Below, in pieces: positions 540 to 41,498 of a DNA stretch of 64,000 nucleotides; the stretch's first letter is position 1; every line of letters begins with the position of its first letter. The notes below the pieces were generated by a model. That model saw only the letters and a list, made by a program, of their open reading frames with translations, was not told the origin of the DNA and made no database searches. The position numbers and the translations under genes are program-made. The stretch comes from an uncultured Gemmatimonas sp. (GTDB taxonomy: Bacteria; Gemmatimonadota; Gemmatimonadetes; Gemmatimonadales; Gemmatimonadaceae). The DNA is taken from NCBI GenBank assembly GCA_964524665.1, contig CAZGFE010000004.1:255-64254 (forward strand). The letters run 5' to 3'.

Positions 540-1249
540 TGGCGCGGGCGCCGCGAAGGTCCGCGCAGGAGAAGAGCAAGAAATCCGATCCCACGCCGCC
601 GTCGCTCACGGGGCAGGCGGAGGACTACCTCAAGGCGATCTACGAGCTCGAACAGCGCAGCGGATCGGCCGGCACCAACGACATCGCCGCTCGGCTCGGC
701 ATCGCGGCCGCGAGCGTCACGGGCATGATCCAGCGGCTCTCGCGGCTCGGACTTGTGCGCGCGGAGCCGTACCGCGGCGCCCGGCTCACGCACACGGGCC
801 GCGGAGCGGCGCTCCAGCTGATCCGCCGACACCGGATCATCGAGAGCTATCTCGTGGAGCGGCTCGGCTTCGGGTGGGAGAACGTGCACGAGGAGGCCGA
901 ACGCCTCGAGCACGCCGCGAGTGACGAGCTGATCGCGCGCATGGCGGACTCCATCGGCAACCCGACGGAGGATCCCCACGGCGCACCGATCCCCAGCGCC
1001 GACGGCGAAGTGGATGAGACGCCGCTCAAGAGCATCAGTGATCTGGCCGAGGGACGAAGCGCGACCGTGGTCCGGATGTCGGACCGCGATCCGGAGTTCC
1101 TGCGTTACTTGGACGCGATGGGCGTGCGTCCCGGGGCTCGGCTGCGCGTCGAGGCGCGTGAGCCGTTTGGCGGACCGATCACGATCGAGGTAGAAGGAGA
1201 GCGCCACGCCGTGGGCGTGGCGGCCGCAGAGCGCGTCTACATCCGCTGA
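539..1249 (+). CDS. DtxR/MntR-family metal-dependent transcriptional regulator with C-terminal FeoA-like domain
   Basis: Motifs EDYLKAIY, RRHRIIESYL, EEAERLEH, DPHGAPIP, 'LRYLDAMGVRPG'; ATG at 539 overlaps the feoB stop (TGATG). Confidence 0.9.
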   Translation: MARAPRRSAQEKSKKSDPTPPSLTGQAEDYLKAIYELEQRSGSAGTNDIAARLGIAAASVTGMIQRLSRLGLVRAEPYRGARLTHTGRGAALQLIRRHRIIESYLVERLGFGWENVHEEAERLEHAASDELIARMADSIGNPTEDPHGAPIPSADGEVDETPLKSISDLAEGRSATVVRMSDRDPEFLRYLDAMGVRPGARLRVEAREPFGGPITIEVEGERHAVGVAAAERVYIR

Positions 1250-2640
1250 CGCGCCCGGGCGCGCAGCCCCTGGTGGAGGAACTCGACGCGGCCATCCGCG
1301 CCTCGGACGAGAATGATCGTCAATGGCGCGCCCTGCGCTGGCGTGACCGTGATCCGGTCGTCGCCCACGAGCCGAATGCTTCCCGCCGACGGTCCCGCGC
1401 GGAACACGAGCGAGTCGCCCTCTTCGGCGATGGTGACCTCCGAGCGACCCTGCGCATACCGGCCCACCAGCTGCGCGCGCTCCGCCGCGGTGGCGAGGCG
1501 CGGTGCGGGGAGCTCGGGCGGGGTGCGCGGCGCCTGGCCGGTGAGTTCGCGCACCACGAGGTCCACGATCCCGCGGAGCGGAGCCCCTGCGCGGTTGTCG
1601 AGCACGACGACCGCCACGCCGCGGTTCGGCAGCATTGCGACCGAGGCATCGAAGCCGGTGATGGCCCCGCCGTGCTGCCAGACCAGTTCCGGGTTTCCGT
1701 CGCTCACCTGCAGTCCGTAGCCGTAGCGCGTGGTTCCGCCGGGGATCGCCGCGCTCCCACGGGTCATCAACCGCACCGCGTCCGGCCGGAGCCGCAGATC
1801 GCCGTCCAGCATCCCCGCGTTCATGAGCGTGATGCTGAATCGCGCCATGTCCTGCGCGCTCGCCATGAGGAATCCGGCCGCCCATTGCGCGGTGTTCTCC
1901 GTGAACGGCCGCACGACGGCGCCCGCGTTCTCCGGCTGTCCCACGTGCCCCTGCGAGAAATCGCGTGTGAGCGCCTGCAGCGGGCGGAACGTCGCGTGCG
2001 GCATGCCCATCGGTCGCAGGATCATCTCGTCCGCGAGGTCGCCGAAGCGCCGGCCCGCGGCGCGCTCAGCCACATATCCTGCCATCGAATAGCCCGGATT
2101 CGAGTACGAGATCACCCGGTCCGCCTCGGTGAAGAACATCGTGTCCGCGACCTCACGCATCACCTCGCCGAGCGCGCCCTCTCCCATGCGGCCGTAGGGC
2201 ACGGCGTTGTCGATCCACCCGGCGGTGTGGGTCAGCAGTTGATGCGTGGTCACGCGGCCGACGCGGCGACCAGTAAGCTCCGGGACGTAGCGCGAGATCG
2301 GTGACTGCAGGTCGAGCTTCCCCTCGGCGGCGAGCTGCGCGATGATCGCGCCGGTGACCATCTTCGTCACCGAGCCCACGCGGAAGAGCGTCTGCGTGGT
2401 GACCGGGCGGCCGGTCTCGATGTCCGCGACGCCGTAGCCGCGCGAGAGGATCACGCGTCCGTTGAACGCGATCGCCACCTGCACGCCCGGTGTGCGCGTG
2501 CGTTCCATCTCGGCCATCACGAGCGAGTCGAGCCGCGGCGTCCAGGCGGGCGCAGTCTCCTGCGCGCGTGCCGTCGTTGCGAAGGTGCCAGTGCTGAGTA
2601 GGGCAGCGAAGGCGGCGTGTCGCAGAAGCGGGAAGTTCAT
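1237..2640 (-). CDS. Secreted serine hydrolase, beta-lactamase class C/AmpC-like family
   Basis: Signal peptide; FRVGSVTK (SxxK), LLTHTAG, YSN (YxN), HGG motifs. Confidence 0.88.
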   Translation of the reverse strand: MNFPLLRHAAFAALLSTGTFATTARAQETAPAWTPRLDSLVMAEMERTRTPGVQVAIAFNGRVILSRGYGVADIETGRPVTTQTLFRVGSVTKMVTGAIIAQLAAEGKLDLQSPISRYVPELTGRRVGRVTTHQLLTHTAGWIDNAVPYGRMGEGALGEVMREVADTMFFTEADRVISYSNPGYSMAGYVAERAAGRRFGDLADEMILRPMGMPHATFRPLQALTRDFSQGHVGQPENAGAVVRPFTENTAQWAAGFLMASAQDMARFSITLMNAGMLDGDLRLRPDAVRLMTRGSAAIPGGTTRYGYGLQVSDGNPELVWQHGGAITGFDASVAMLPNRGVAVVVLDNRAGAPLRGIVDLVVRELTGQAPRTPPELPAPRLATAAERAQLVGRYAQGRSEVTIAEEGDSLVFRAGPSAGSIRLVGDDRITVTPAQGAPLTIILVRGADGRVEFLHQGLRARARQRM

Positions 2641-4274
2641 CGCGAAGCTCGGAGCGTGGTGGAGAGCCAGTCGGCCAGGACGCCCAGTGTCTCGCGGCTC
2701 ACACGCGGATCCTTGAGCCTCGCGTAGCCGCTGGGGTGCCCGTCCGGGTCGTGGACGAAGAAGTGATTCTGGTCCGCAAAGATGCGCAATGTCACCCGCC
2801 GGTTGCCGGACTCGCGCAAGGCGGCGTCGAGCAGACGCGCCTCCTCTGGCCGCACCTGCTGATCGGTCGCGCCCTGCAGGATCAGCGTCGGCTGCTTCAC
2901 GCGCCGCGCGGTGGGGATCGGGTCGTACGCCAGAAAGAACTGCATCCAGTGGCTCTTGGCCGTGGTGGAATCGAACTCCGCTTTGGCCGCGGCGATCAGC
3001 GTTGCGACCGAATCCGCCGGGAGGTCACTCCCTCGCGCGCCGTTCGCGATCTGATAGTCGATGATCTGGCGTCCTGTGTATGCGGTGCCAGCGAGCAGCA
3101 CGATCCCGGCTATGCGCGGATCCGTCGCCGCCACCATTGGTGCGATCATTCCCCCCTCGCTGTGTCCCACGAGCGCGATCCGCGCCGGGTCGATCTCCGG
3201 GCGAGTGCGCAAGTACGCGACGGCCGCGCGGATGTCGTCCGCGAAGTCCGCCGAGGTGCCCGCTGCGTCGCCGCCGGAACCGCCGATGCCGCGATCATCC
3301 ATCCGCAGCACCGCGATCCCTCGGCGGCCGAGCGTGTCGGCCACCTCACGGAACAGCCGGTAGCCGCCGGCGAGGTTTACGAACTCGTCGCGGTCCTGGG
3401 CACCGGAGCCGGTGATCGTGACCACGGCCGGCAGCCGGCCGCGGTCGCCGCGGGGCAGCGTGAGCGTCCCGGCGAGCGTGTGCCCAGCGGGTGCGGACAC
3501 CCGCACGTCCTCCGCCAGATACGGCGCCTCCGCTGGCGCCGAATAGTCCGGCGGAGCGAGGCGGATGTTGATCGCCTCGGCGCCCTCTGCCGCGAGGATC
3601 CGCAGGCCCGCGGACGGGATCGCACCGCCCGTCACGAATCCGCGCGCATCCAGGGTCAGCAGCGTCACGCTTGGCCCGATCGTGAAGCGCACCGTATCGC
3701 CGGCGAGGCGCTCGATCTTCCCCGGCACGACCTGCGCCGCCGAGAGCGCAAAGAGGGGAACGGACATCACCGAATCCCCGGCGGCACGCATCCGGCGCAC
3801 CATCTGCTCGGCGATCACGAGATGGTTGTTCACGATCGGCATCGTGCCAGCTGGGGTGGCCACGCGGAACGTGCGCGTGCCGCCACCCCCGTGGATGACG
3901 AGGATCGTGCTGTCGGGCCGGAACTCCACGGTCCCGTGCTGGATCGGCGCCGCGTCGGCCGCCGCATTGGGCCCGAAGACCTCGAAGGTGGTCTGGCGCA
4001 CGAGTTGGTCAGCGCCGAGATCGTGCACGAGCACCACGCGCGGCGCGCCGCGCCCTGCGATCTCGGTGCGGAGCTGCTGCGCGGTGCGCTCGACCCGCTC
4101 GAAGACGAGCGTGTCGGTGCCGCGCAGGATCAGAATGGCGCTCCGCCGCACGAGGTCCTGACCTGCGGCCTCGCGCGGCGTGAGCAGGAGCAGTCCCGCC
4201 ATCAGCACCGCGAGCACGACGACGAGCGCGGCGAGGAGTCGCTCGCGTGGGAGCTTGCGAAACAGGTGCAGCAT
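2637..4274 (-). CDS. Secreted/anchored alpha/beta hydrolase with N-terminal beta-rich domain
   Basis: N-terminal hydrophobic segment; ITGSGAQDRD, DDRGIGGS, GHSEGG nucleophile elbow, QGATDQQV, NHFF. Confidence 0.85.
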   Translation of the reverse strand: MLHLFRKLPRERLLAALVVVLAVLMAGLLLLTPREAAGQDLVRRSAILILRGTDTLVFERVERTAQQLRTEIAGRGAPRVVLVHDLGADQLVRQTTFEVFGPNAAADAAPIQHGTVEFRPDSTILVIHGGGGTRTFRVATPAGTMPIVNNHLVIAEQMVRRMRAAGDSVMSVPLFALSAAQVVPGKIERLAGDTVRFTIGPSVTLLTLDARGFVTGGAIPSAGLRILAAEGAEAINIRLAPPDYSAPAEAPYLAEDVRVSAPAGHTLAGTLTLPRGDRGRLPAVVTITGSGAQDRDEFVNLAGGYRLFREVADTLGRRGIAVLRMDDRGIGGSGGDAAGTSADFADDIRAAVAYLRTRPEIDPARIALVGHSEGGMIAPMVAATDPRIAGIVLLAGTAYTGRQIIDYQIANGARGSDLPADSVATLIAAAKAEFDSTTAKSHWMQFFLAYDPIPTARRVKQPTLILQGATDQQVRPEEARLLDAALRESGNRRVTLRIFADQNHFFVHDPDGHPSGYARLKDPRVSRETLGVLADWLSTTLRASR

Positions 4275-4468
4275 CAGGTCTCCGAAGGTCCGCGCGGCGG
4301 CGTGCCAGCCCCTGAACTCCGGCTCGCACGTCCCGCGCGCTTGAGTGCGTCACGCAGGAGGAACTCGATCTGCGCGTTCAGACTACGCAGGTCGTCATTG
4401 GCCCAGCGCTGGACCGCGTCGAGCAGCTCGCGGTCCACGCGCAGCAGAAAGGGCTTCTTCTCAGCCAC
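4274..4468 (-). CDS. Small ribbon-helix-helix (Arc-like) DNA-binding protein
   Basis: KKPFLLRVDRELLDAVQRWANDDLRSLNAQIEFLL is the typical SPFH-associated RHH pattern; directly downstream of SPFH gene. Confidence 0.8.
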   Translation of the reverse strand: MAEKKPFLLRVDRELLDAVQRWANDDLRSLNAQIEFLLRDALKRAGRASRSSGAGTPPRGPSET

Positions 4469-4475
4469 CGTCCGC

Positions 4476-5345
4476 TCAGGTGTAGAGCGAGCCGGTGTTC
4501 ACCACAGGTTGCGTGGCGTGGTCCGAGCAGAGGACCACGAGCAGGTTGCTCACCATCGCCGCCTTGCGTTCCTCGTCGAGCCGCACGATGGCCTTGGCGC
4601 TGAGCATCTCGAGCGCCGTCTCCACCATCCCGACCGCGCCTTCGACGATCTTCTGGCGGGCCGCGATGATCGCGCTCGCCTGCTGCCGCTGCAGCATCGC
4701 GGCGGCGATCTCGGGCGAGTACGCCAAGTGGCTGATCCGCGCCTCGACCACCTTCACGCCCGCCTTGAGCAGCCGCGCAACGAGGGCTTCCTCGAGCGCG
4801 TGCGAGACCTCTTCGGTGTTCGCCGAGAGTGACTTCTCGCCTGCGGTATGCGAGTCGTAGGCATACTGCGTCGCCGTGGCGCGCAGCGCCGACTCACTCT
4901 GCACCGCCACGTAGCGCGCGTAGTCGTCCACTTCGAACAACGCCTCGGCGGAGTCAATCACGCGCCACACCACGATCGCGGCGATCTCGATCGGGTTGGA
5001 GTGGTTGTCATTCACCTTGAGCTTGGCGGTCTCGAAGTTCCGGACGCGCAGCGAGATGGCCTGCTTCGTGAGGAAAGGATTCGCGAACCAGAACCCGTCC
5101 TTCCGGACCGTGCCCTTGTAGGTGCCGAAGAGCACGAGCGCCTTGGCCTCGTTCGGGTGGACGATGAAGAGGCCGCTCAGCATGAAGGCGGCCACGCCAA
5201 CGCCGAGGATCGTGACGAGCCCCATCGGCTCGTTGCCGCCCTGGAAGAACTGGACGGCGACGAAGACCCCGCCCGCGATCAGCACGAGCAGGCCGAGGAG
5301 GACACCGAGGCCGCTGATCGCGGCATAAGGCTTTTCGTTGTACAT
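4476..5345 (-). CDS. SPFH (band 7/flotillin-like) membrane protein
   Basis: Two N-terminal TM helices; [57 protein letters not shown]. Confidence 0.92.
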
Positions 5346-5517: not shown

Positions 5518-7290
5518 ATGATTTGCGTTCACTGCAGCACTCCCGTTGGTGACGGCGCGAAGTATTGCCACTCCTGTGGCTCGATGGTCTCGGACGCCGA
5601 GGGTCAGGCGGCTGCGACCGCGGCCATGGACATGTCGGCGTTCGCGCACATGGAGAAGCTGCTCCGGGAAGAGACGGCGGGAGAGTTCGTCGTCGGCAAG
5701 CTGCTCGGGCGAGGCGGCATGGCGGTGGTCTATCTCGCCGAGGAGACGCGGCTCGGGCGCAAGGTCGCGCTCAAGGTGCTCCCGCCGGAGCTGACCTTCG
5801 GCCACGGGGTGGAGCGCTTCCTGCGCGAGGCCAAGACGGCGGCCACGCTCGACCACCCGCACATCATCCCGATCTATCGCATCGCGTCCGGCGGCAAGCT
5901 CTTCTGGTATGCGATGAAGTTCCTCGAGGGCCAGTCGCTGGACGACGTGCTCAAGGAGCGCGGCGCCTACAGTCTCGAGGAGACCCTGGTCATTCTGGAG
6001 CAGGTGGCCGACGCGCTCGACTACGCGCACGAGCGGAAGGTCATCCACCGCGACATCAAGCCGGCCAACGTGATGCTCGACCAGCGCGACCGGGTCATCA
6101 TCACGGACTTCGGCATTGCCAAGGCGCTTACCGAAGGCGCGCTCACCGCGTCGGGCTCGGTGATCGGCACGCCGTACTTCATGAGCCCCGAGCAGGGGAT
6201 GGGCAAGCCCGTCACGGGCGCGGCCGACCAGTACTCGGTGGCCGTGATGGCGTTCCGCATGCTCTCGGGCCACCTGCCATTCGACGGCGACTCGGCGATC
6301 GACATCCTGCACAAGCATTGCATGATGGAGGCGCCGCGTCTGGATGAGTCCATGCCGCATCTTCCGCAGCACGTGGTCGCGGCGGTCGAGAAGGCGATGG
6401 CGAAGAAGGCGGACGAGCGTTTTCCGAACATCAAGGCGTTCGTCTCGGCCATGAAGGATCCGTCGGTCAAGTTCGCGCGGCCGAGTGCGCGAACGGTGAT
6501 GATCGACTCCGGTGAGGTGGAGAAGGCGAACGCGGCGGGGCTCAAGGCGGCGGCGAAGAAGCACGCCGCGGCCAGCGCGGCCAAGACGGTGATGTCGGCG
6601 CCGGCAGCCAAGGGAGCCGTTGCCGCCGCGCCAGAGAAGAAGAGTCGCGCGTTGCTGTGGGTGGCGATCGCCGCGATCGTGATCGGTGGCGGTGGGTTTG
6701 GGGCGTGGCAGATGACCAAGTCTTCGGGCGAGCCGGTCGCCGCGAACACGGCTTCTGGGGCGAACACGCCCGCGACGGATCCTGGTCCAGTGACGCCGCC
6801 CGCTGGAGGGGCGACGCAGACGAATCCTGGCCCAGGCACCCCAGCCGGTTCCGCGTCGACGGAGACGCAGACGCCGCCGGTGCAGTCGCCGCCGGTGCAG
6901 ACGCCGCCAGCGAACGCGCCACCGCCGACCGCGCGTACGACGCCCACGCAGCGGACGCCGGCGCGGCAGCCGGCGAACACCCCAAGCACTCCGCCGCAAC
7001 AGGTCGCGCAGACGCCGCCCCCGCAGACGGAGCCCGCGCCAGCCTCGCCTGCACCGGTCACGGAGTCGGCCGACGCCGAGGCGACGCTGCAGCTGATCCT
7101 GCCGACGCCGGGCGTTGTCATGATCAACGGCGTCTCCAAGGGCGAGCGTTCCCGCATGCAGGAGAAGCTGCGCGCGGGCAGACACGCCATCCGGATCGAG
7201 CGTGAAGGCTTCGCACCGATCGACACGAACATCACTTTCGCCGCTGGCGAGACCAAGCGCGTGACCCTCACTCTGGTGGCCCGCCCGTGA
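5518..7290 (+). CDS. Membrane Hanks-type Ser/Thr protein kinase: N-terminal zinc ribbon, kinase, TM helix, Pro/Thr/Gln linker, C-terminal PEGA domain
   Basis: CVHC...CHSCG; GRGGMAVVY, VALK, HRDIKPAN, DFG, GTPYFMSPE; TM 'LLWVAIAAIVIGGGGFGAW'; PEGA-like 'LRAGRHAIRIEREGF'; ATG at 5518 preferred to TTG 5473. Confidence 0.92.
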   Translation: MICVHCSTPVGDGAKYCHSCGSMVSDAEGQAAATAAMDMSAFAHMEKLLREETAGEFVVGKLLGRGGMAVVYLAEETRLGRKVALKVLPPELTFGHGVERFLREAKTAATLDHPHIIPIYRIASGGKLFWYAMKFLEGQSLDDVLKERGAYSLEETLVILEQVADALDYAHERKVIHRDIKPANVMLDQRDRVIITDFGIAKALTEGALTASGSVIGTPYFMSPEQGMGKPVTGAADQYSVAVMAFRMLSGHLPFDGDSAIDILHKHCMMEAPRLDESMPHLPQHVVAAVEKAMAKKADERFPNIKAFVSAMKDPSVKFARPSARTVMIDSGEVEKANAAGLKAAAKKHAAASAAKTVMSAPAAKGAVAAAPEKKSRALLWVAIAAIVIGGGGFGAWQMTKSSGEPVAANTASGANTPATDPGPVTPPAGGATQTNPGPGTPAGSASTETQTPPVQSPPVQTPPANAPPPTARTTPTQRTPARQPANTPSTPPQQVAQTPPPQTEPAPASPAPVTESADAEATLQLILPTPGVVMINGVSKGERSRMQEKLRAGRHAIRIEREGFAPIDTNITFAAGETKRVTLTLVARP

Positions 7291-8912
7291 AGCGACTCCT
7301 CCTTGTCGGAACGACGCTCGCGCTCGCGCTGACCGCGCCCGCGCTGCAGGCGCAGGGTTCGCGCGCCGATCTCCTGCGACAGGCCACCGCGGCCTACGAT
7401 GACTTCGACATCCCGCGGGCCGCGCGACTCGCGCGCGCCGCACTCGACCCGTCGATCGGCGCCCGTGACTCGGTGTGGGCGCGCGGCGTTCACCTGCTCA
7501 CGCAGCTGCTGATCGAGGACAACCAGAACGCGCAGGCCACACTGTGGGCCCGCTGGGCCATGCGGATCGAGCCCACGCTCCAGATCGACTCGGTGCGTTT
7601 CCTCGGCGAGGTCGTCACGACGCTGCGCGATGCGCGCGCCGCAGTGGTGCGTACCACCGCCGATGACGCGACGCGCGAGACCTTCGCGTGGCCCACGGCG
7701 ACGTTCACCGGCAACGAGGCGCGGATCCGCCTCGCCCCCGGCGCGGACAACGTGAGCATTCTCGTCACGGGCGTTGGGCTGGTGTCTCCCGGCCCGGGGA
7801 TCACGCTGCAGCCGGGCACGTACGATCTGCAGGTCAACGCGACCGGCTTCCTGCCGCTCCGCATCACGCGCGAGGCGCTTCCGGGCGTCACCACGGAGTT
7901 CAGCTTCACGCTCACGTCGGCGGCCGCGGCCGCCAATACGCTCGCGGCAGATGTGGCCACGCGGGTGAATCGCAGTGTCGTTCCGCTCAACGTCACGCGC
8001 TTCGGCGGTGCCGCGCCTGCGTGCGCCGCCGGTGTGGTCGCGAGCGGCGGCCGCTTGGTGGTCACGTCGTACACGGCGATCCGCGGGGCGGATGGCGTCG
8101 CTTCAGGTCCTGGTGATGGGGTGCGCGTGGCCGCGTGGAACGTGGCCGCGAATCTGGCGGTGCTGGTGGTGCCGAACGCGGCAGCAGATACGCTGCCCAT
8201 CACGGACAATCTGGTGGCGGGGCAGGCGCTCTTCGGCATCACGCTGCAGGAGTGCCGCACGCCGACCCAGACGCGCGTGCTGCTCTCCTCGTGGGAGGGG
8301 CGGCCGGCGGGATCGCTGAATCTTTCCGCGCCGCTTCCGGGTGACGTGTCCGGCGCGCCGTTCGTGGATTTCCGCGGGAGCATCGCGGGCGTGTGGAACT
8401 CGGGGCCGACGGCTGTGCCGGCGGCGGTCGTGACCGGCCTGCTCTCGACCGCGCGCGCGAACGTCGCGGCGGGGCGGCTGCTGACGCCGCAGGCGGTGGC
8501 GACGCAGGAACGGCATCGCTACGGCACCATGGTCATCGCGGCGGACATCCCCGAGGCGGCGATCAAGGTCACGCCGCTCGAGGCGTGGCATTGGGCGGGG
8601 CTCGCGGCCGAGGCCACGGGCACGCTCACGTTGAATGCACCCGCCGGCCGCTACCGCGTCGAGGCATCGGTGCCGGGCGTGCCCACGCGCACGCTCGAGG
8701 TGACGGTGGTTCCGGGTGAGCGCGGTCGCACCGCCGTCGACTTCCGCGTGGTGGCCGGCGGCGGGGACGTGGTGGAGCCGAGAAAGGGTCTGCCGCGCTG
8801 GGTGTGGATCGTCGCGATCGGCGGCGGCGCGGCGGCGGCGTTGGCGTTGGGAGGTGGTGGAGGAGGAGGTCCGTCCGGCGGGTCCATCGGCATCGCGGTG
8901 CCCAACCCATGA
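7287..8912 (+). CDS. Exported PEGA-domain protein with helical N-terminus, degenerate trypsin-like domain and Gly-rich hydrophobic C-terminus
   Basis: Signal peptide (ALQA); PEGA-like 'LQPGTYDLQVNATGF' and 'APAGRYRVEASVPG'; trypsin-like spacing 'VVTSYTAI...NLAVL...SGAPFVDFRGSIAGV'; GTGA overlap with kinase stop. Confidence 0.7.
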   Translation: MKRLLLVGTTLALALTAPALQAQGSRADLLRQATAAYDDFDIPRAARLARAALDPSIGARDSVWARGVHLLTQLLIEDNQNAQATLWARWAMRIEPTLQIDSVRFLGEVVTTLRDARAAVVRTTADDATRETFAWPTATFTGNEARIRLAPGADNVSILVTGVGLVSPGPGITLQPGTYDLQVNATGFLPLRITREALPGVTTEFSFTLTSAAAAANTLAADVATRVNRSVVPLNVTRFGGAAPACAAGVVASGGRLVVTSYTAIRGADGVASGPGDGVRVAAWNVAANLAVLVVPNAAADTLPITDNLVAGQALFGITLQECRTPTQTRVLLSSWEGRPAGSLNLSAPLPGDVSGAPFVDFRGSIAGVWNSGPTAVPAAVVTGLLSTARANVAAGRLLTPQAVATQERHRYGTMVIAADIPEAAIKVTPLEAWHWAGLAAEATGTLTLNAPAGRYRVEASVPGVPTRTLEVTVVPGERGRTAVDFRVVAGGGDVVEPRKGLPRWVWIVAIGGGAAAALALGGGGGGGPSGGSIGIAVPNP

Positions 8913-19354: not shown

Positions 19355-19371
19355 TAGCTGAGTTGGGAAGG

Positions 19372-19408
19372 GAACGCGGCCCGGGAGCTTCGCTCCCGGG
19401 CCGCGTTC
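19372..19408 (+). terminator. Strong hairpin, probable intrinsic terminator of the kinase operon
   Basis: GAACGCGGCCCGGGAGC-ttc-GCTCCCGGGCCGCGTTC perfect 17-bp stem just after the stop; U-tract weak. Confidence 0.7.
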
Positions 19409-23133: not shown

Positions 23134-24039
23134 CTACGCCACGCGATCCCGTTTGAACTGGAGCACCACGACCGCCGAGACGATCAGTGCGCCACCGATC
23201 AGGGTCGGCGCCGTGAGCGGCTGCGACAGCACGATCACACCGAGGATCGCCGTGAGGAACGGCTCGACCGTCGATACGATCGCCGTGCGCACCGGCCCCA
23301 ACCGAATGAGGCCCATCAGGAAGAACACGCTCGGCAGCACCGTGCTGAAGATCGTCAGCGCGAGAATGATGCCCCAGACCGACGGCTCGATCTGATAGGT
23401 GAAGGTCCGGTCGCTCGCGCTGAGGATCAGGAAGGCCAGCGCGGCGCCGATCTTCGAGTAGGCGCTCGTCGGCGCCACGGGGTGGTCCTTCTGGATCACG
23501 CGCATGATCGGGATGTAGGCGCCGTACACCATCGCGGCGGAGATCGCGAGGGCGACGCCGCGCCAGTCGATCCCGTCCGTTCCGGGCATGCCGACCATCA
23601 CGCCGATCCCGGTAAAGGAGAGCGCCAGCGCGAGGCCGCGCCGGACGTCGAGTCGCTCGGCGCCGCGCACCGCCTGGACGAGCGCCACCCAGGCCGGATA
23701 CGAGTAGAAGAGAAAGGCGAGCGTCGCCGCCGGGATGAACTGCAGCGAGGAGAGGGCGAGAAAGACGAGCAGCGCCTGACCGAACCCGCCGATCGTCACG
23801 AAGCGCAGCATCTCGCGCGGAGGGATCCGCGCGTAATCGTGCGTGCCGACCCACACCGTGAGCACCACCGCCGCGAGGACGTAGCGCCACGCCAAGAGCG
23901 TGGAGAGCGAGAGGCCCGCCGCCGTGGCGAGCGAGGTGAGGATCGCGACGGCCGCGAATCCGGTGGCCGCGAGCAGCGTGTACACTGTCCCCGACGCCTG
24001 CCCGGTGCCTTCGATATGTGAATGTCTGGAGATCGTCAT
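23134..24039 (-). CDS. EamA/DMT family transporter
   Basis: About 10 TM helices; 'LAWRY', 'LFYSYPAWV', 'LGPVRTAIVSTVEP'. Confidence 0.88.
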   Translation of the reverse strand: MTISRHSHIEGTGQASGTVYTLLAATGFAAVAILTSLATAAGLSLSTLLAWRYVLAAVVLTVWVGTHDYARIPPREMLRFVTIGGFGQALLVFLALSSLQFIPAATLAFLFYSYPAWVALVQAVRGAERLDVRRGLALALSFTGIGVMVGMPGTDGIDWRGVALAISAAMVYGAYIPIMRVIQKDHPVAPTSAYSKIGAALAFLILSASDRTFTYQIEPSVWGIILALTIFSTVLPSVFFLMGLIRLGPVRTAIVSTVEPFLTAILGVIVLSQPLTAPTLIGGALIVSAVVVLQFKRDRVA

Positions 24040-24061
24040 TGATCCAATAAGATGGCGGTGG

Positions 24062-24955
24062 TCACGTCGGCGCGGGGACCTGCACGGCCGGGTTCGAGCG
24101 ACGCTGCAGCACGAGGATCGCTCCGACGATGCACGCGCCGCCCGCGACGGTGGACGGACCGAGCGGCTGCGCGAGGATCAGCGCGGCGAGCACCGCAGTG
24201 AAGAATGGTTCGGCTGTCGAGAGGATCGCCGAGCGCACCGGCCCCAGCACGGCCAGTCCCTTGAGAAAGGTGATGAACGCCACGACGGTGCAGTAGCCCG
24301 CGAGGACGAATGCGATCAGCCAACCCGGCGGGGTCATGTTCGCCACGAGCGCGCGCTCGGACAGCGCGAGGAGCAGGAACGCGAGGGCCGCACCGGTGAT
24401 GATCCACGCCGACGCCGCAGAGGCATCGAGGGGTCCCCGCAGCCGCTGCAAGAGCGGGATGTACAGTGCGTAGATCACCGCGGCGCTGAGTGCTCGGAGC
24501 ACCCCGGGGAGAGGGAACGCGAGCGCCCACGGGGCGCCGACCATCAGCGTGATCCCCAGCAGCGCGAGCGCGATGGCCCCGAGGCGCGGCGGCGTGAGCC
24601 GTTCACTGCCCGAGACGGCCGCGAAGACGGCGACCCACGCGGGATAGGTATAGAAGAGGAACCCCAGCGACGCGGCCGGCATCCACTCGAGAGCCGAGAG
24701 CGCGAGCCACGTGACGAGCGTCTGGCCGCCGCCGCCCAGGAGGACGAGCGCCAGCGCGCGGTCGGGCGGCGTGCGCAGGACGCTGCGCGGCCCTGCCGCA
24801 ACCACGAGCAGCGGCGCGGCGAGGAGGTAGCGCCAGGCCATCAGCGTCGCGAGCCCGATCCCCAGGCGCGCCGCGAGCGTGGTGCCGATCGAGAGCGCCC
24901 CATAGGCACTCGCCGCGACGACGATGTACGCGGCCGCGCGGCGTTCGGTGATCAG
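24062..24955 (-). CDS. EamA/DMT family transporter (paralog); start probably non-canonical CTG at 24955
   Basis: Same motifs (MAWRY, LFYTYPAWV, LGPVRSAILSTAEP); first TM helix (AAYIVVAASAYGALSI) lies upstream of the first ATG at 24841. Confidence 0.8.
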   Translation of the reverse strand: MITERRAAAYIVVAASAYGALSIGTTLAARLGIGLATLMAWRYLLAAPLLVVAAGPRSVLRTPPDRALALVLLGGGGQTLVTWLALSALEWMPAASLGFLFYTYPAWVAVFAAVSGSERLTPPRLGAIALALLGITLMVGAPWALAFPLPGVLRALSAAVIYALYIPLLQRLRGPLDASAASAWIITGAALAFLLLALSERALVANMTPPGWLIAFVLAGYCTVVAFITFLKGLAVLGPVRSAILSTAEPFFTAVLAALILAQPLGPSTVAGGACIVGAILVLQRRSNPAVQVPAPT

Positions 24956-37360: not shown

Positions 37361-39616
37361 ATGACACCGACCGTTCTGCTGCGTCATCGCACCTCGATCT
37401 CGCTCGCCATGCTGCTGCTGGCCGGCGCCTGCGCGGACGGGCCGCAGGGCGGCGCGAATCGGCCGCCCGAGGTGGTGCTCCAGCTCTCGGCGCCCGCGCC
37501 GACGTTCTCGGGTGGCGATTCCGTGGACGTCGCGCTTTCGGCGACCGATCCGAACGAAGGCGCGCTGGCCTCGTCCGCGCTCAGCTGGTGGGTCACGTTG
37601 CATCACGCGAGCCACACGCACCCGTACCGCGCACCTGCGACCGGCGCAGCGGGTCGCTTCGGGATCGGCCGGGAGGGTCACGAGGATCACGATGTCTTCC
37701 TGCGCGTTTACGCGCGCGCGGTGGACGAGCAAGGACTCGCGGACACGGTTTTCGTGGACCTGCCGCCTACGCTCGTGTTGCTGACGATCGCGAGCGCTCC
37801 AAGCGCACTGCAGGTGACGCTGGATGGGCAGCCGCGCACCACGCCGTTCACGTTGCCCGCGATCGCGGGGATGGAGCGGAGTGTTGGCGCCGCACCCGAG
37901 CAGGTCCTCGGATCCGTGGTGTACTCGCTCAGCGGCTGGAGTGATGCGGGCGCCTCGACGCACACGATCGTCGTGCCCGCCACGTCGCTCACGCTGACGG
38001 CGACCTACGACTCGATCGCGACGACGAACGCAGCGCCGTCGGTCACGCTGACGTCGCCGAGCGCAGCCCTCGTCACGGGGGTTGGTGCCAGCGTGTCGTT
38101 GAGCGTCACGGCAGCAGATCCCGATGGGAGCATTGCCAGCGTAGCGTACGTGGCGAACGGGTCGGTCGTGGCGACCTCGTCCACGCCGCCGTTCAACGCG
38201 ACCTGGATCCCGTCGACCGCGGGGACCTATCAACTGCTCGCTCGCGCCACGGACAACGGGGGCGCCGTTGGCGAATCGCCGACGCGGGCGGTCACCGTGC
38301 AGCCGGCGAGCGCGCCGACCGCTACGCTCGACCTGCCGGCGGATGGGACCCTCGGTCTTACGGGGGCGATCACACTGAACGCGTCCGCGGCGGACGAAAC
38401 GAGCGTGTCGTTCGTGGAGTTCGAGGTGGACGGCGTCTGGCTGGCGACGGACAGCGCAGCGCCCTACTCGGCGGTGGTGCCCAGCACGGCGGCGTATGCC
38501 AGCGGTGCGCACGTCGTGCGCGCTCGGGCGCGGGACGGCGACGGCAACTATTCCGTGTGGGCCAGCGCGCGCGTGACCTTCGGCGGATCACAGGCGCTCC
38601 CCGCCGGGTTCAGCCGCACGACCGTGACCAACGCGCTCGCAGCCACGCCGACGTCGATCGCCGTGGCACCCGACGGACGGATCTTTGTGAGCGAACAGAC
38701 GGGCGCGCTGCGGGTGATCAAGAACGGCGTGCTCCTGGCGCAGCCCTTCGCCGTCCTCGCCGTGGACGCGAATGGTGAAGGCGGGCTCCTCGGCATTGCG
38801 TTCGATCCGGACTTCGTCGCGAACGGATGGATCTATCTCTACCACACCGTTGCCGCCGGAGGCACGCACAACCGGATCTCGCGGTTCACCGCCTTGGGTG
38901 ACGTCGCCGCCGCCGGCAGCGAGCTCGTGCTCGTCGACCTGCCGCCGCTCGGCTCCTCCGGACGCCATCGCGGCGGCGCCATGAAGTTCGGTCCGGACGG
39001 GCTGCTGTACGTCCTGGTGGGCGACGACGGCGTCTCAGCCCACGCGCCGGATCTCGCGGTGCCGTTCGGGAAGGTGCTGCGGTTCCACAAGGACGGCACG
39101 ATCCCGGCGAACAATCCCTTCTACGGGGTCACGACAGGTCTCAGTCGCGCCATCTGGGCGCGCGGACTCCGGAATCCGTTCTCGTTCGACATTCAGCTCT
39201 CCACCGGCCGAATGCACATCAACGACGTGGGGCAGTCGACGTGGGAGGAAGTGAACGTCGGGCGCGCCGGCGCGAACTACGGCTGGCCCTCGACCGAAGG
39301 TCCGACGTCCGCCGCCGGCGTGGATCCGCCGCTGCTCGCGTATCGCCACACGAACAGCCCGACACTCTTCCAAGGTTATGCAGTGGTCGGTGCGGCGTTC
39401 TACGATCCGCCAACGGCCATGTTCGGGGCCGAGTATGTGGGCGATTTCTTCTTCGCCGACTACGTGAATCAGTGGATCTACCGGCTGGACGCGCAGGCGG
39501 ACTGGGCGCCGTACGCCTTCGCCACGCTCGACGCTCCCATCACGGGGCTGGCAGTGGGCCTGGACGGCGCGCTCTACGTTCTCGCGGGGAATCGGGTCGA
39601 CCGGATCTTCAGGTAG
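37361..39616 (+). CDS. Lipoprotein with Ig-like (Big_7-type) domains and C-terminal PQQ-dependent glucose/sorbosone dehydrogenase-like beta-propeller
   Basis: Lipobox AGAC; A.D.DG.I..V..Y, GTY.L.ARATDN.G; GEGGLLGIAFDP, FGPDG.LY, GLRNP, DVGQ..WEE, NYGWP. Confidence 0.85.
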   Translation: MTPTVLLRHRTSISLAMLLLAGACADGPQGGANRPPEVVLQLSAPAPTFSGGDSVDVALSATDPNEGALASSALSWWVTLHHASHTHPYRAPATGAAGRFGIGREGHEDHDVFLRVYARAVDEQGLADTVFVDLPPTLVLLTIASAPSALQVTLDGQPRTTPFTLPAIAGMERSVGAAPEQVLGSVVYSLSGWSDAGASTHTIVVPATSLTLTATYDSIATTNAAPSVTLTSPSAALVTGVGASVSLSVTAADPDGSIASVAYVANGSVVATSSTPPFNATWIPSTAGTYQLLARATDNGGAVGESPTRAVTVQPASAPTATLDLPADGTLGLTGAITLNASAADETSVSFVEFEVDGVWLATDSAAPYSAVVPSTAAYASGAHVVRARARDGDGNYSVWASARVTFGGSQALPAGFSRTTVTNALAATPTSIAVAPDGRIFVSEQTGALRVIKNGVLLAQPFAVLAVDANGEGGLLGIAFDPDFVANGWIYLYHTVAAGGTHNRISRFTALGDVAAAGSELVLVDLPPLGSSGRHRGGAMKFGPDGLLYVLVGDDGVSAHAPDLAVPFGKVLRFHKDGTIPANNPFYGVTTGLSRAIWARGLRNPFSFDIQLSTGRMHINDVGQSTWEEVNVGRAGANYGWPSTEGPTSAAGVDPPLLAYRHTNSPTLFQGYAVVGAAFYDPPTAMFGAEYVGDFFFADYVNQWIYRLDAQADWAPYAFATLDAPITGLAVGLDGALYVLAGNRVDRIFR

Positions 39617-39641
39617 GCCAATATCCAAGGACACCGCAGGG

Positions 39642-39670
39642 TTGCCCGAGGCTCTGGAGCCGGGTAATTT
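39642..39670 (+). promoter_or_regulatory. Probable sigma70 promoter of tRNA-Gln
   Basis: TTGCCC (39642-47), 17-bp spacer, TAATTT (39665-70), 30 bp upstream of the tRNA. Confidence 0.5.
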
Positions 39671-39700
39671 CCGGGTTCTCCGGCACCTGTGGTGCCGCAC

Positions 39701-39773
39701 TGCCCCTTGGTGTAACTGGCAACACGCCTGACTCTGGATCAGGAGAGTCCTGGTTCGATCCCAGGAGGGGCAA
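39701..39773 (+). tRNA. tRNA-Gln(CTG), CCA not encoded
   Basis: Acceptor TGCCCCT/AGGGGCA, anticodon arm CCTGA-CTCTGGA-TCAGG, T-loop GTTCGATCC. Confidence 0.95.
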
Positions 39774-39788
39774 CTCGAAGTCCGTACG

Positions 39789-39833
39789 ACGAAAGGCGCG
39801 GTCACCCCGAACGGGTGCCCGCGCCTTTCGTTT
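39789..39833 (+). terminator. Intrinsic terminator after tRNA-Gln
   Basis: ACGAAAGGCGCGG...CCGCGCCTTTCGT stem, then TT. Confidence 0.7.
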
Positions 39834-39852
39834 GTGGAGCTCTCCGAAAGCA

Positions 39853-39882
39853 GAACGGCGCCTCCCGAAGGAGACGCCGTTC
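39853..39882 (-). terminator. Hairpin, probable terminator of the convergent Ig/PPC lipoprotein gene
   Basis: GAACGGCG-c-CTCC-cgaa-GGAG-a-CGCCGTTC (UUCG loop on the minus strand). Confidence 0.55.
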
Positions 39883-39915
39883 CACTGCAAGGAACTGGTT
39901 GTCCGTCCGAATCCC

Positions 39916-41217
39916 TTACGGGTGTGTCAGAGTCAGGGTCATGCCAGTGACGGCGCCAGCCGGCGACCACGCGTACGAACGCACGCGGTAGTAGCCTGCG
40001 AGCGGAGCGGCCACGGGGCAGGACTCGTTGTTGCCGCTGAACCACGGGCGGCACACGTAGCCGCTGCCACCACCGTCGGTCGCCGAGAACGTCGTGACGC
40101 CGGGGTTATAGAGGTAGAGGTCAGCATCGCCCGTGCCGCCGGCCTGCGTGACGGTGAAGTTCGCCAAGCCAGTGCCAAGGACTGTGTAGTCAGCGAATCC
40201 GCCGGCTGCGATGGCGGGCACGTTCACGGCGACGCCGTTCGCGAGCTGCGGCACCACGCGGAAGCCAGCCACGCTGGAGGGGCTCGAGCCGCCAAGGCCC
40301 TGACCCGTCGCGGTCGCGGTGATGCGGAGCGTGTCCGACCCGCCGCCCATCGTCACGGTGCCAGTCGTGTTGCCAGTGCCGCTGCCGACGACCGTGCCGA
40401 CACCAGCGTTGTTCGTCGACCAAGTGATGGTCGCCGTCGGGATCGTGTTGCCAAGACCCGAGCGAGCCGTCGCCGTGAGGACCACGTCACCCGTGTTGCC
40501 ACGGAAGCCCTGCGTGCCGGTGATCAGGATGTTGTTGACGACCGGGTCGCCGGTGACGGTGACAAGGCGCACCGAGTTGACGACCGTGCCGCCGTCCAGC
40601 GCGTTGGCGGCCGTGGCCGTGATGTTGGCCGTCGTGCCGTCAGGCGTCGTGGCGGAGGCCTGGACGAGCCCAGTGGCCGAGACCGTCGCGACTGCGGTGT
40701 TCGAGGAGGCCCAGGTCACCGTGCGTCCGGTGACCGTCGCGCCCTGCGTGTCGATCGTTGTGGCGGTGATCTGCTGCGCGCCTTCGCGTGCCAGCGTGAT
40801 CGTGGCCGGGGCGAGCGTGATGCTGCCGACCGGGTAGCGGACCGCGAACGCGATCGAGTCGGTCTTGCCGCCCGCCGTCGCGCGGATGTACGCCGTGCCG
40901 CCAGCGACCGCCGTCGCGAGACCGTCAGCCGTGATGGTCACGACCGCCGCGTTGGAGGTGGCCCACGTCACCGGCTTGTCCACCCAGTTGTCCGACGCAT
41001 TGGTCGGCACGCCGAGGAACTGGCGGGTCGTGGCCGGGATCAGGTTGGAAAGCGTCTGGAGGTTCGGGAGGGTCACGATCTCAACCTTGACCACAGTCGA
41101 CCCACCGACGCCACCACCTGAATCCGACGAGCACGCGGAGACAGTGAGGAGCGAGACCGCGACCAGCGCGGTCAGAAGGCGCGCCCAAGGCGCACGGAGG
41201 GAGTGCTTCGGCATCAT
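39916..41217 (-). CDS. Lipoprotein with three Big_2-type Ig domains and a C-terminal PPC domain
   Basis: Lipobox VSAC; three 'VTW.(T/S)SN.AV.T(I/V)...G' repeats; PPC 'GDADLY...YVCRPWFSGNNESC....AGYY'. Confidence 0.82.
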   Translation of the reverse strand: MMPKHSLRAPWARLLTALVAVSLLTVSACSSDSGGGVGGSTVVKVEIVTLPNLQTLSNLIPATTRQFLGVPTNASDNWVDKPVTWATSNAAVVTITADGLATAVAGGTAYIRATAGGKTDSIAFAVRYPVGSITLAPATITLAREGAQQITATTIDTQGATVTGRTVTWASSNTAVATVSATGLVQASATTPDGTTANITATAANALDGGTVVNSVRLVTVTGDPVVNNILITGTQGFRGNTGDVVLTATARSGLGNTIPTATITWSTNNAGVGTVVGSGTGNTTGTVTMGGGSDTLRITATATGQGLGGSSPSSVAGFRVVPQLANGVAVNVPAIAAGGFADYTVLGTGLANFTVTQAGGTGDADLYLYNPGVTTFSATDGGGSGYVCRPWFSGNNESCPVAAPLAGYYRVRSYAWSPAGAVTGMTLTLTHP

Positions 41218-41498
41218 CAGAGTACCGGTGCTGAGGTGGGGACGCGCCCTGCAACCGGTGCAGGGACACGCCATTTCTGACACCCGCGCGAAGGGAACGC
41301 GGGATGACGGACGACTCTATCTTGGCTCACAGGCCAAAGATGTGCAAGCGCAGGCCGACACATCGCCTTCGGGTAATCTTCGGACCCCCCGGCGTGAGCC
41401 TATCGCCGGGCCAGCGCGCGACCTACGTTCTCCGCGCCCGGCCGGAGTGTGATCCACACGACAATTCCCGGTCGGGCGGACCTTCCATCACTCCTCAC

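Follow-up and report, generated by a model that had tools for sequence, protein, structure and literature searches.

How Hanks-type Ser/Thr kinases of bacteria with two membranes sense what lies beyond the outer membrane is, to our knowledge, a largely open question. It is raised here by three adjoining genes in a 64,000-nucleotide stretch of DNA (referred to below as the window) from an uncultured Gemmatimonas sp. (GenBank assembly GCA_964524665.1, contig CAZGFE010000004.1), which encode a membrane kinase (gene 1), an exported adaptor (gene 2), and a giant lipoprotein (gene 3). An earlier examination of the letters alone, the sequence-only reading, had likened the end of the lipoprotein to the ectodomain of the metazoan receptor tyrosine kinases ALK and LTK and had proposed that the operon builds the equivalent of a receptor kinase from separate chains. 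The module is real and conserved, and the core of the system is the C-terminal tail of gene 2, not the tip of the lipoprotein. The observations described below are best read as a three-chain trans-envelope receptor in which kinase, adaptor, and lipoprotein would be coupled by strand insertion, a reading to which we give a little less than an even chance. If it is true, the locus represents a concrete route by which a Hanks kinase could sense the outside of the outer membrane.

Gene 2 was found in 29 of 55 genomes of the genus. The matching kinase PEGA domain (at least 77 bits) was present in the same 29 genomes, adjacent to gene 2 in 28 of them and split from it by a contig end in the 29th. 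The lipoprotein base was found in 27 of the 29; in the two exceptions, the contig ends within gene 2. None of the three genes was detected at these scores in the remaining 26 of the 55 genomes. These absences carry information; since the profiles were built partly from the same loci and the genomes are kin, no statistic is claimed for them. The triad, whose neighborhoods the sequence-only reading had proposed to search for a variable third gene, is conserved and is gained or lost as a unit, and its third gene does vary. The named relatives are Gemmatimonadaceae. Among 74 locus rows, duplicates and kin included, 71 have a complete tail and 66 have at least 400 nucleotides downstream; in 64 of these 66, the tail is followed by a gene-3-type lipoprotein, the exceptions being L071 and L085.

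The genes are coupled as first described, with a GTGA overlap at 7287 and an ATGA overlap at 8909. All three reading frames have a third-position GC content of 0.87 to 0.89, and the window contains no N. The strong hairpin said to close the gene set was also recovered (19 pairs, z = −5.4, 0 of 200 shuffles equally stable), although the terminator scan did not call it, and a U-tract is absent. A promoter scan found no plus-strand site upstream of gene 1.

The tail of gene 2

The tail opens with a basic patch; next come a Trp/Gly/Ala helix and a Gly/Pro linker, and a strand closes it. A charge of about +3 precedes the helix, and Cys occurs in 0 of 47 tails. The helix is less hydrophobic than the transmembrane (TM) segment of the kinase from the same locus (medians of +2.9 versus +1.1 in 28 loci, on the hydrophobicity scale used). 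The terminal strand mimics strand A of the mature lipoprotein: a Gly is present in 45/47 tails and 44/47 first strands, and an Ile follows two residues past it in 42/47 tails and 37/47 lipoprotein first strands.

Binding between gene 2 and the lipoprotein N terminus, for which a complex prediction had been suggested, was examined with lipoprotein residues 23 to 223 and the C-terminal 50 residues of gene 2, using a 47-row alignment for each. The pair scored 0.78, compared with 0.00 for the best of three controls, and passed a mark that 116 of 157 solved complexes attain, as do 2 of 215 mismatched pairs; these rates are only rough for self-made alignments. The runs had at least 71% of their contacts in common, with a predicted local distance difference test score (pLDDT) of 46 to 47 for the partner. 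Confident contacts came from tail residues 530 to 541 only, which were predicted to lie antiparallel to lipoprotein residues 79 to 84, touching core positions as well as the first strand of the domain itself. As judged from the contact list rather than from coordinates, the mode would be strand insertion or exchange. The pass supports the predicted binding. In the monomer model of gene 2, the tail is undocked, with a pLDDT below 50 for residues 489 to 540, and self-binding of the tail was therefore not seen.

A tail-only profile matched in 46 of 301 phylum genomes. In the strong matches, the tail is carried by a shorter or unrelated body, and a gene-3-type lipoprotein again comes next; weaker matches included kinase TM segments and one lipoprotein N terminus. 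Against 1.84 billion representatives, the profile matched 235 clusters at 50% identity. Among the 150 matches listed, 141 have the tail 20 or fewer residues from the C terminus, and 74 have no match to the gene 2 body. Some of these 74 are fragments; other, whole proteins among them are TPR-only, Ig-like, or of about 100 residues with their own signal peptide. Seven proteins of ∼100 residues (P0136, P0138, P0175, P0192, P0194, P0200, and P0207) contain only a signal peptide, a short linker, and the tail, and the nearest Atlas clusters of P0194 are unnamed ones from Nitrospinota, Deferrimicrobiota, and Thermodesulfobacteriota. Three loci of family f10 (L172, L173, and L174) carry an exported PEGA-caspase gene, a tail protein of ∼170 residues, and a lipoprotein with the same first domain, possibly a protease-output version of the module.

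The tail also occurs within longer chains. In five natural fusions (P0160, P0163, P0180, P0181, and P0189), a hydrophobic start or TPR region is followed by the basic patch, the helix, the Gly linker, and a PEGA domain of which the tail strand forms strand 1; four of the five continue into NHL or FGE-sulfatase domains. These chains resemble a merger of genes 2 and 3 into a single polypeptide. The same five proteins and P0151 show TPR, an internal basic-plus-helix segment, and then PEGA or P-domain cargo, a layout in which single-helix anchoring in the outer membrane is possible.

Catalogued C-terminal signals did not account for the tail. In GlyGly-CTERM and MYXO-CTERM sorting signals, we take the order to be motif, TM helix, and basic C terminus; the order here is basic patch, helix, Gly run, and strand, and no such NCBIfam entry matched any of 41 tails. 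The NCBIfam family NF058595 (invert_tail) gave weak matches on 7 of the 41 tails (best E value of 0.0013, cut-off of 37 bits) and matched neither gene 2 nor its tail in the window. YjbE gave weak matches, below the cut-off, on 3 of 47 tails (best E value of 0.00048; Atlas score of 0.86).

Kinase, adaptor body, and lipoprotein

Gene 1 matched Pfam Zn_Ribbon_1 (residues 3 to 22), Pkinase (residues 58 to 283; E value of 9e−46), and PEGA (residues 534 to 587; E value of 1e−7), with a single hydrophobic segment near residues 376 to 397. The features that define Hanks-type Ser/Thr kinases (Gly loop, VAxK, HRDxKxxN, DFG, and activation segment) are present and intact as the Gly loop, VALK, HRDIKPAN, DFG, and GTPYFMSPE. 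Both results agree with the membrane Hanks kinase bearing a zinc ribbon, linker, and PEGA domain that had been described from the letters. The linker from TM segment to PEGA domain is rich in Pro, Thr, and Ala in gene 1 and is 68 to 180 residues long in 28 loci (median, about 120). Full-length kinase domains within the genus are 74 to 87% identical to that of the window, and the catalytic motifs are kept in most of the upstream homologous kinases checked; four that had been taken as dead actually carry HRDMKPAN. Assignment of gene 1 to the PknB/Stk1 PASTA kinases was rejected, as NF033483 scored 294 bits against a cut-off of 450 and PEGA replaces PASTA. In one locus (L171:5146-9303), the lipoprotein gene is immediately followed by another kinase gene, whose product has a zinc ribbon and an RCC1-like end.

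The genome of the window holds 33 open reading frames with a catalytic-loop motif. It also has a second PEGA-kinase operon outside the window (G000:C12:59666-62993, minus strand). The kinase of this operon, likely a pseudokinase, has neither the catalytic Asp nor DFG; of the other two genes, one encodes an exported TPR-like protein bearing two Gly-rich helices and the other is beta-barrel-like. Comparable triads are present in L012-L021. This arrangement suggests that a PEGA kinase plus a TPR protein is a reusable periplasmic link.

Gene 2 comprises a signal peptide, TPR-like helices, a PEGA-like domain, an HtrA-fold pseudo-protease domain, a second PEGA-like domain, and the tail. A cleavable-type signal peptide motif, present in 31 of 38 gene 2 rows, indicates that the body is exported. 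The model (38-row alignment) had a mean pLDDT of 83, with two PEGA/CarboxypepD-like sandwiches and an unstructured tail. The two PEGA-like domains, pseudo-protease, and tail of an exported protein stand as the sequence-only reading had them; the TPR-like N-terminal domain is an addition to that description. It has weak matches to proteins encoded after other PEGA kinases and before beta-barrel-like genes. Compared with PDB sequences, gene 2 had a sole match, to carboxypeptidase D (E value of 0.02).

By fold, residues 217 to 397 matched the HtrA/S1C proteases (Z = 21.8, root mean square deviation of 2.8, 185 aligned residues for 3k6y), with a Z of 21.1 to RsgI9 (7sjy) and of about 20 to 22 to HtrA, DegP, and DegS. 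Tyr262 is present in 38/38 gene 2 rows, the inferred Ser position is variable, and one Cys pair is invariant. Tyr262 presumably occupies the position of the catalytic His; this position and that of the Ser were assigned from sequence motifs and not from superposed coordinates. The domain is read as an exported pseudo-protease, and an active protease was rejected on these residues. It is dispensable, being absent from four homologues (L121, L128, L176, and L184). An apparent kinase-gene 2 fusion in L176 proved to be a frameshift artefact, with PEGA in a different frame and stops in the signal peptide of the next gene. No longer fused form of the whole of gene 2 scored among 7,990 candidates of 1,004 to 2,865 residues, which is weak evidence.

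Gene 3 begins with a lipobox (VTS-C23) whose Cys is invariant in 47/47 rows. The base was modeled with a pLDDT of 92.7 as an Ig-like domain, an FN3-like domain, and then a PPC/collagen-binding-like domain, the last of which matched the ColG collagen-binding domain (5iku) with a Z of 14.3, a root mean square deviation of 1.9, and 108 aligned residues. Fold searches of the base returned no pilin; FN3 and PPC domains dominated them, and the N-terminal domain was barely probed. The lipobox and a count of 29 FN3 repeats confirmed the lipid-anchored stalk of about 29 repeats that had been proposed. A Cys pair is present in 26 of the 29, median pairwise identity is 36%, and at ∼3.5 nm per repeat we estimate the stalk at roughly 100 nm. 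A Pfam search of the pre-tip domain gave no match.

Table 1. Positions in the window of the three genes, their domains, and the downstream hairpin
Feature	Position	Strand	Description
Gene 1	5518..7290	+	ATG start, 590 residues; membrane Hanks-type Ser/Thr kinase
Kinase PEGA domain	7075..7287	+	Predicted periplasmic; Pfam PEGA 534-587 and alignment
Gene 2	7287..8912	+	GTG start, 541 residues; exported adaptor
TPR-like helical domain, gene 2	7356..7667	+	Helices 26-127 in model
HtrA/S1C-fold domain, gene 2	7935..8477	+	Fold match; Tyr at inferred catalytic His position
Tail anchor, gene 2	8781..8873	+	Basic patch, weakly hydrophobic Trp/Gly/Ala helix 505-521, Gly linker
Terminal beta-strand, gene 2	8874..8909	+	Residues 530-541; complex prediction and motif common with lipoprotein strand A
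Gene 3	8909..19354	+	ATG start, 3,481 residues; giant lipoprotein
Lipoprotein signal peptide and lipobox Cys23	8909..8977	+	Sequence; Cys in 47/47 rows
Conserved base module	8975..9571	+	Ig-like beta-sandwich 23-128 and FN3-like domain 130-221
PPC/collagen-binding-like beta-sandwich	9572..9943	+	Fold match to 5iku
Stalk	9944..18118	+	29 FN3 repeats, 26 with Cys pair
Pre-tip domain	18119..18499	+	PPC-like by position only; PPC there in homologues
Exchangeable tip	18500..19351	+	ALK/LTK-like TNF-like plus glycine-rich domain, residues 3198-3481
Hairpin 3' of gene 3 stop codon	19370..19410	+	19 bp, no U-tract

Elsewhere in the window, divergent genes of the SPFH/Band 7, alpha/beta hydrolase, and beta-lactamase families lie upstream on the minus strand (1237-5345); SPFH and hydrolase genes adjoin the triad in L001 as well. 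Downstream are a tandem pair of EamA transporter genes (23134-24841) and two further probable lipoproteins in convergent orientation (37361-41283), one with Big_7 and a glucose/sorbosone dehydrogenase-like propeller and the other with Big_2 and PPC.

A proposed three-chain receptor and its rivals

In the preferred reading, the starting point is three proteins that, from their sequences, are all exported or membrane anchored, with kinase motifs intact and a protease fold that appears catalytically degenerate. Residues 530 to 541 of gene 2 are predicted to pair antiparallel with lipoprotein residues 79 to 84 and to pack where the lipoprotein's own first strand lies. The lipoprotein is likely located at the surface, since a stalk of ∼100 nm exceeds the periplasm. 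The weakly hydrophobic tail helix would then not be retained in the inner membrane; it would span the outer membrane or lodge in it, its basic patch facing the periplasm. A helix stopped in the inner membrane would place the strand in the cytoplasm and the basic patch in the periplasm, which clashes with the partner and with the positive-inside rule; on topology, a tail helix that spans the outer membrane or is embedded there is the simplest fit. The TPR-like domain of gene 2 may in turn bind the PEGA domain carried on the ∼120-residue linker of the kinase. Once the tip bound a surface, polymer, or cell, the complex would be pulled or clustered, and kinase autophosphorylation would change.

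Several observations weigh against this receptor. Among 20 loci of other families, a kinase gene lies upstream in 14, a PEGA-caspase gene in 3, a SPOR gene in 1, and neither in 2. The third gene is apparently broken near residue 158 in one locus (L104; G302:C4:69110-69735) with kinase and gene 2 intact, and gene 2 has no lipoprotein after it in L071 and L085. Profile-profile comparison of the tail with strand A was weak (11 columns, E value of 0.01, probability of 4%). The likeness of the tail to the domain's own first strand may itself drive the pass in the complex prediction, in which the fold of the partner is uncertain (pLDDT below 50) and the output consists of contact lists only. The triad is not accompanied by any translocon gene, and we know of little precedent for single helices that cross the outer membrane. 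Within the genome of the window, the gene 2 profile does not detect the TPR-like protein of the second PEGA-kinase operon, whose kinase lacks the catalytic Asp.

The tip gave rise to the idea that it is a dedicated ligand sensor and that the operon corresponds in bacteria to ALK/LTK signaling. The resemblance noted from the letters was borne out: residues 3198 to 3481 matched LTK (7nx0) with a phmmer E value of 1.3e−13 and an ALK structure with 1e−9, the first Cys pair included, and the Atlas score to PF12810-bearing clusters was 0.96. PF12810 itself does not match the window tip, yet many close homologues carry it; Gly bias may filter the match. The chain ends at the tip, and the TM helix and Tyr kinase of ALK/LTK are absent from it. 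As the point of the system, the tip did not hold up. Among 22 complete homologues, an ALK-like tip was found in 4, an unnamed domain after PPC in 8, RCC1 propellers in 5, DUF4350-like domains in 2, Kelch repeats in 1, and Big_2-containing ends in 2. In the gene 2 tree (24 rows), one nine-row clade with a support of 100/100 unites six ALK-tipped loci with three that have the unnamed tip. The ALK-like tip was present in 3 of 201 genomes sampled across the phylum, and it matched 1,133 of the 7,989 long proteins that were scored. Many of these have type IX secretion system (T9SS), autotransporter, or cadherin domains, and phage-rich Atlas clusters were matched as well. The tip was rejected as the defining sensor, and a bacterial ALK equivalent seems to us highly improbable. 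What the tip does show is this fold as an exchangeable prokaryotic binding cassette, which matters less than the tail.

Three other explanations keep the tail at the center. It might clip and orient a long adhesin at the surface, with the kinase co-expressed with the adhesin or controlling it from the cell interior and not reading it. Such a role would fit the persistence of the tail-lipoprotein pair without the kinase (L003/L190, L172-L174, L185, and L189), tips that are typical binding modules (the ALK-like one also being found on T9SS cargo, autotransporters, and cadherin-like proteins), and minimal ∼100-residue tail proteins that are too small for a relay domain. It sits poorly with the co-inheritance of kinase and adaptor in 29/29 genomes, their overlapping or close junctions, the closely related full-length kinase domains of the genus, and a lipoprotein that already owns a lipid anchor, and we regard it as unlikely, if a serious competitor. 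A complex confined to the periplasm, in which a re-entrant or one-leaflet helix and periplasmic strand pairing report the state of the envelope or wall to the kinase, would make outer membrane crossing unnecessary. The helix is indeed short and kinked by Gly, upstream partners include SPOR and caspase-like domains with PEGA, and third genes of only 410 to 1,200 residues exist. The length of 29 FN3 repeats argues for the surface instead, as do the disulfide-type Cys pairs and adhesin-type tips, which leaves this explanation with a small probability. Slightly smaller still is that of a transient chaperone or export factor, whereby gene 2 would lend its strand while the first domain folds or passes the envelope and then release it, as a pilus chaperone does. 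HtrA folds often serve as chaperones, the tail strand mimics the acceptor domain's own first strand, and that domain was modeled as complete without its partner; against this, the HtrA-fold domain is missing from four loci that look functional (those listed above), and in the natural fusions the strand is permanently built into the cargo domain.

The three-chain receptor retains from the sequence-only reading the unity of the triad, the variable third gene, and the link between gene 2 and the lipoprotein as now predicted, and gives up the centrality of the ALK-like tip and the universality of the kinase. A wider proposal, which we put forward tentatively and think more probably wrong than right, is that the tail is a widespread envelope clip. 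With its basic patch, helix, Gly linker, and first strand but no Cys, it would mimic the N terminus of a lipoprotein, cross the outer membrane, and swap its strand into the first domain of a surface lipoprotein, wiring exchangeable adhesin-like arms (here the FN3 stalk of ∼100 nm) to effectors in the periplasm or cytoplasm, such as Hanks kinases or caspase-like proteases; the present locus would then be a receptor kinase spanning both membranes. Because the tail is portable, occurring on many unrelated bodies among the 235 clusters, it may be a general, unnamed tie of surface lipoproteins to periplasmic partners.

Comparison with known systems

No description of this system was found in the literature searched, with most subscription papers outside the reach of the search. 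In the Rcs system (RcsF-IgaA) and in TonB-dependent surface signaling, an outer membrane part, a periplasmic relay, and an inner membrane output are combined. Their outputs are a His-kinase relay or an extracytoplasmic function sigma factor, and neither is known to involve a Hanks kinase or strand insertion. Chaperone-usher pili and the type V pili of Bacteroidota are assembled by donor-strand complementation, and type V pilins begin as lipoproteins. A similar arrangement is predicted here, with one chain's terminal strand completing or invading a beta-sandwich that belongs to another chain. Unlike in those pili, the donor would be a one-off adaptor rather than a polymerizing subunit, the monomer model of the acceptor domain retains that domain's own first strand, and neither an usher nor a processing protease is encoded alongside the triad.

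An S1C protease-like extracytoplasmic domain within a trans-envelope signaling protein is also known from the RsgI9 anti-sigma factor of Clostridium thermocellum, where it is described as polysaccharide-binding (PDB 7sjy; PMC12203970). RsgI9 is one chain acting on a sigma factor through regulated proteolysis, whereas the domain here is optional and on a separate adaptor. The tip shares sequence homology with the ALK/LTK ectodomain (PDB 7nx0 and 7lrz), and its fold has been reported in Pam3 gp24, a phage receptor-binding tail fiber already likened to the ALK ectodomain (PMC9608196); unlike in ALK/LTK, the tip is an exchangeable cassette on a chain that has neither TM helix nor Tyr kinase.

Resemblances to the tail are found in two catalogued families. 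YjbE/GfcA (PF11106), encoded in group 4 capsule operons just ahead of a lipoprotein gene, is small and exported and has a Gly/Ala helix and a Thr-rich end; the function of GfcA is given as undefined (PMC8592465). Capsule genes are absent at the triad, and the likeness is a lead only. The nearest catalogued relative of the tail is invert_tail, the "lipo-invert putative C-terminal anchoring domain," which likewise runs from a basic patch through a hydrophobic helix and a Gly run to a beta-strand. Three members above the cut-off were found in 151 phylum genomes (L151-L153). In these, a TM helix leads to an Arg run, an internal lipobox, and strands at the terminus that may complete a partner domain too. 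The additional TM helix and the internal lipobox Cys set these members apart from the tail of gene 2, where the lipid anchor is on the product of the next gene.

The three-gene logic itself has a parallel in GlnH-GlnX-PknG of Mycobacterium and Corynebacterium, in which an extracellular sensor acts through a separate membrane protein on a Hanks kinase (PMC11032199). Sensor, relay, and Hanks kinase are encoded in one conserved gene cluster in both cases. PknG is cytoplasmic and GlnX is the transducer; in contrast, the kinase described here has its own TM helix and external PEGA domain, the adaptor has a signal peptide and a helix-strand tail, and the putative sensor is a 3,481-residue stalk with an exchangeable tip.

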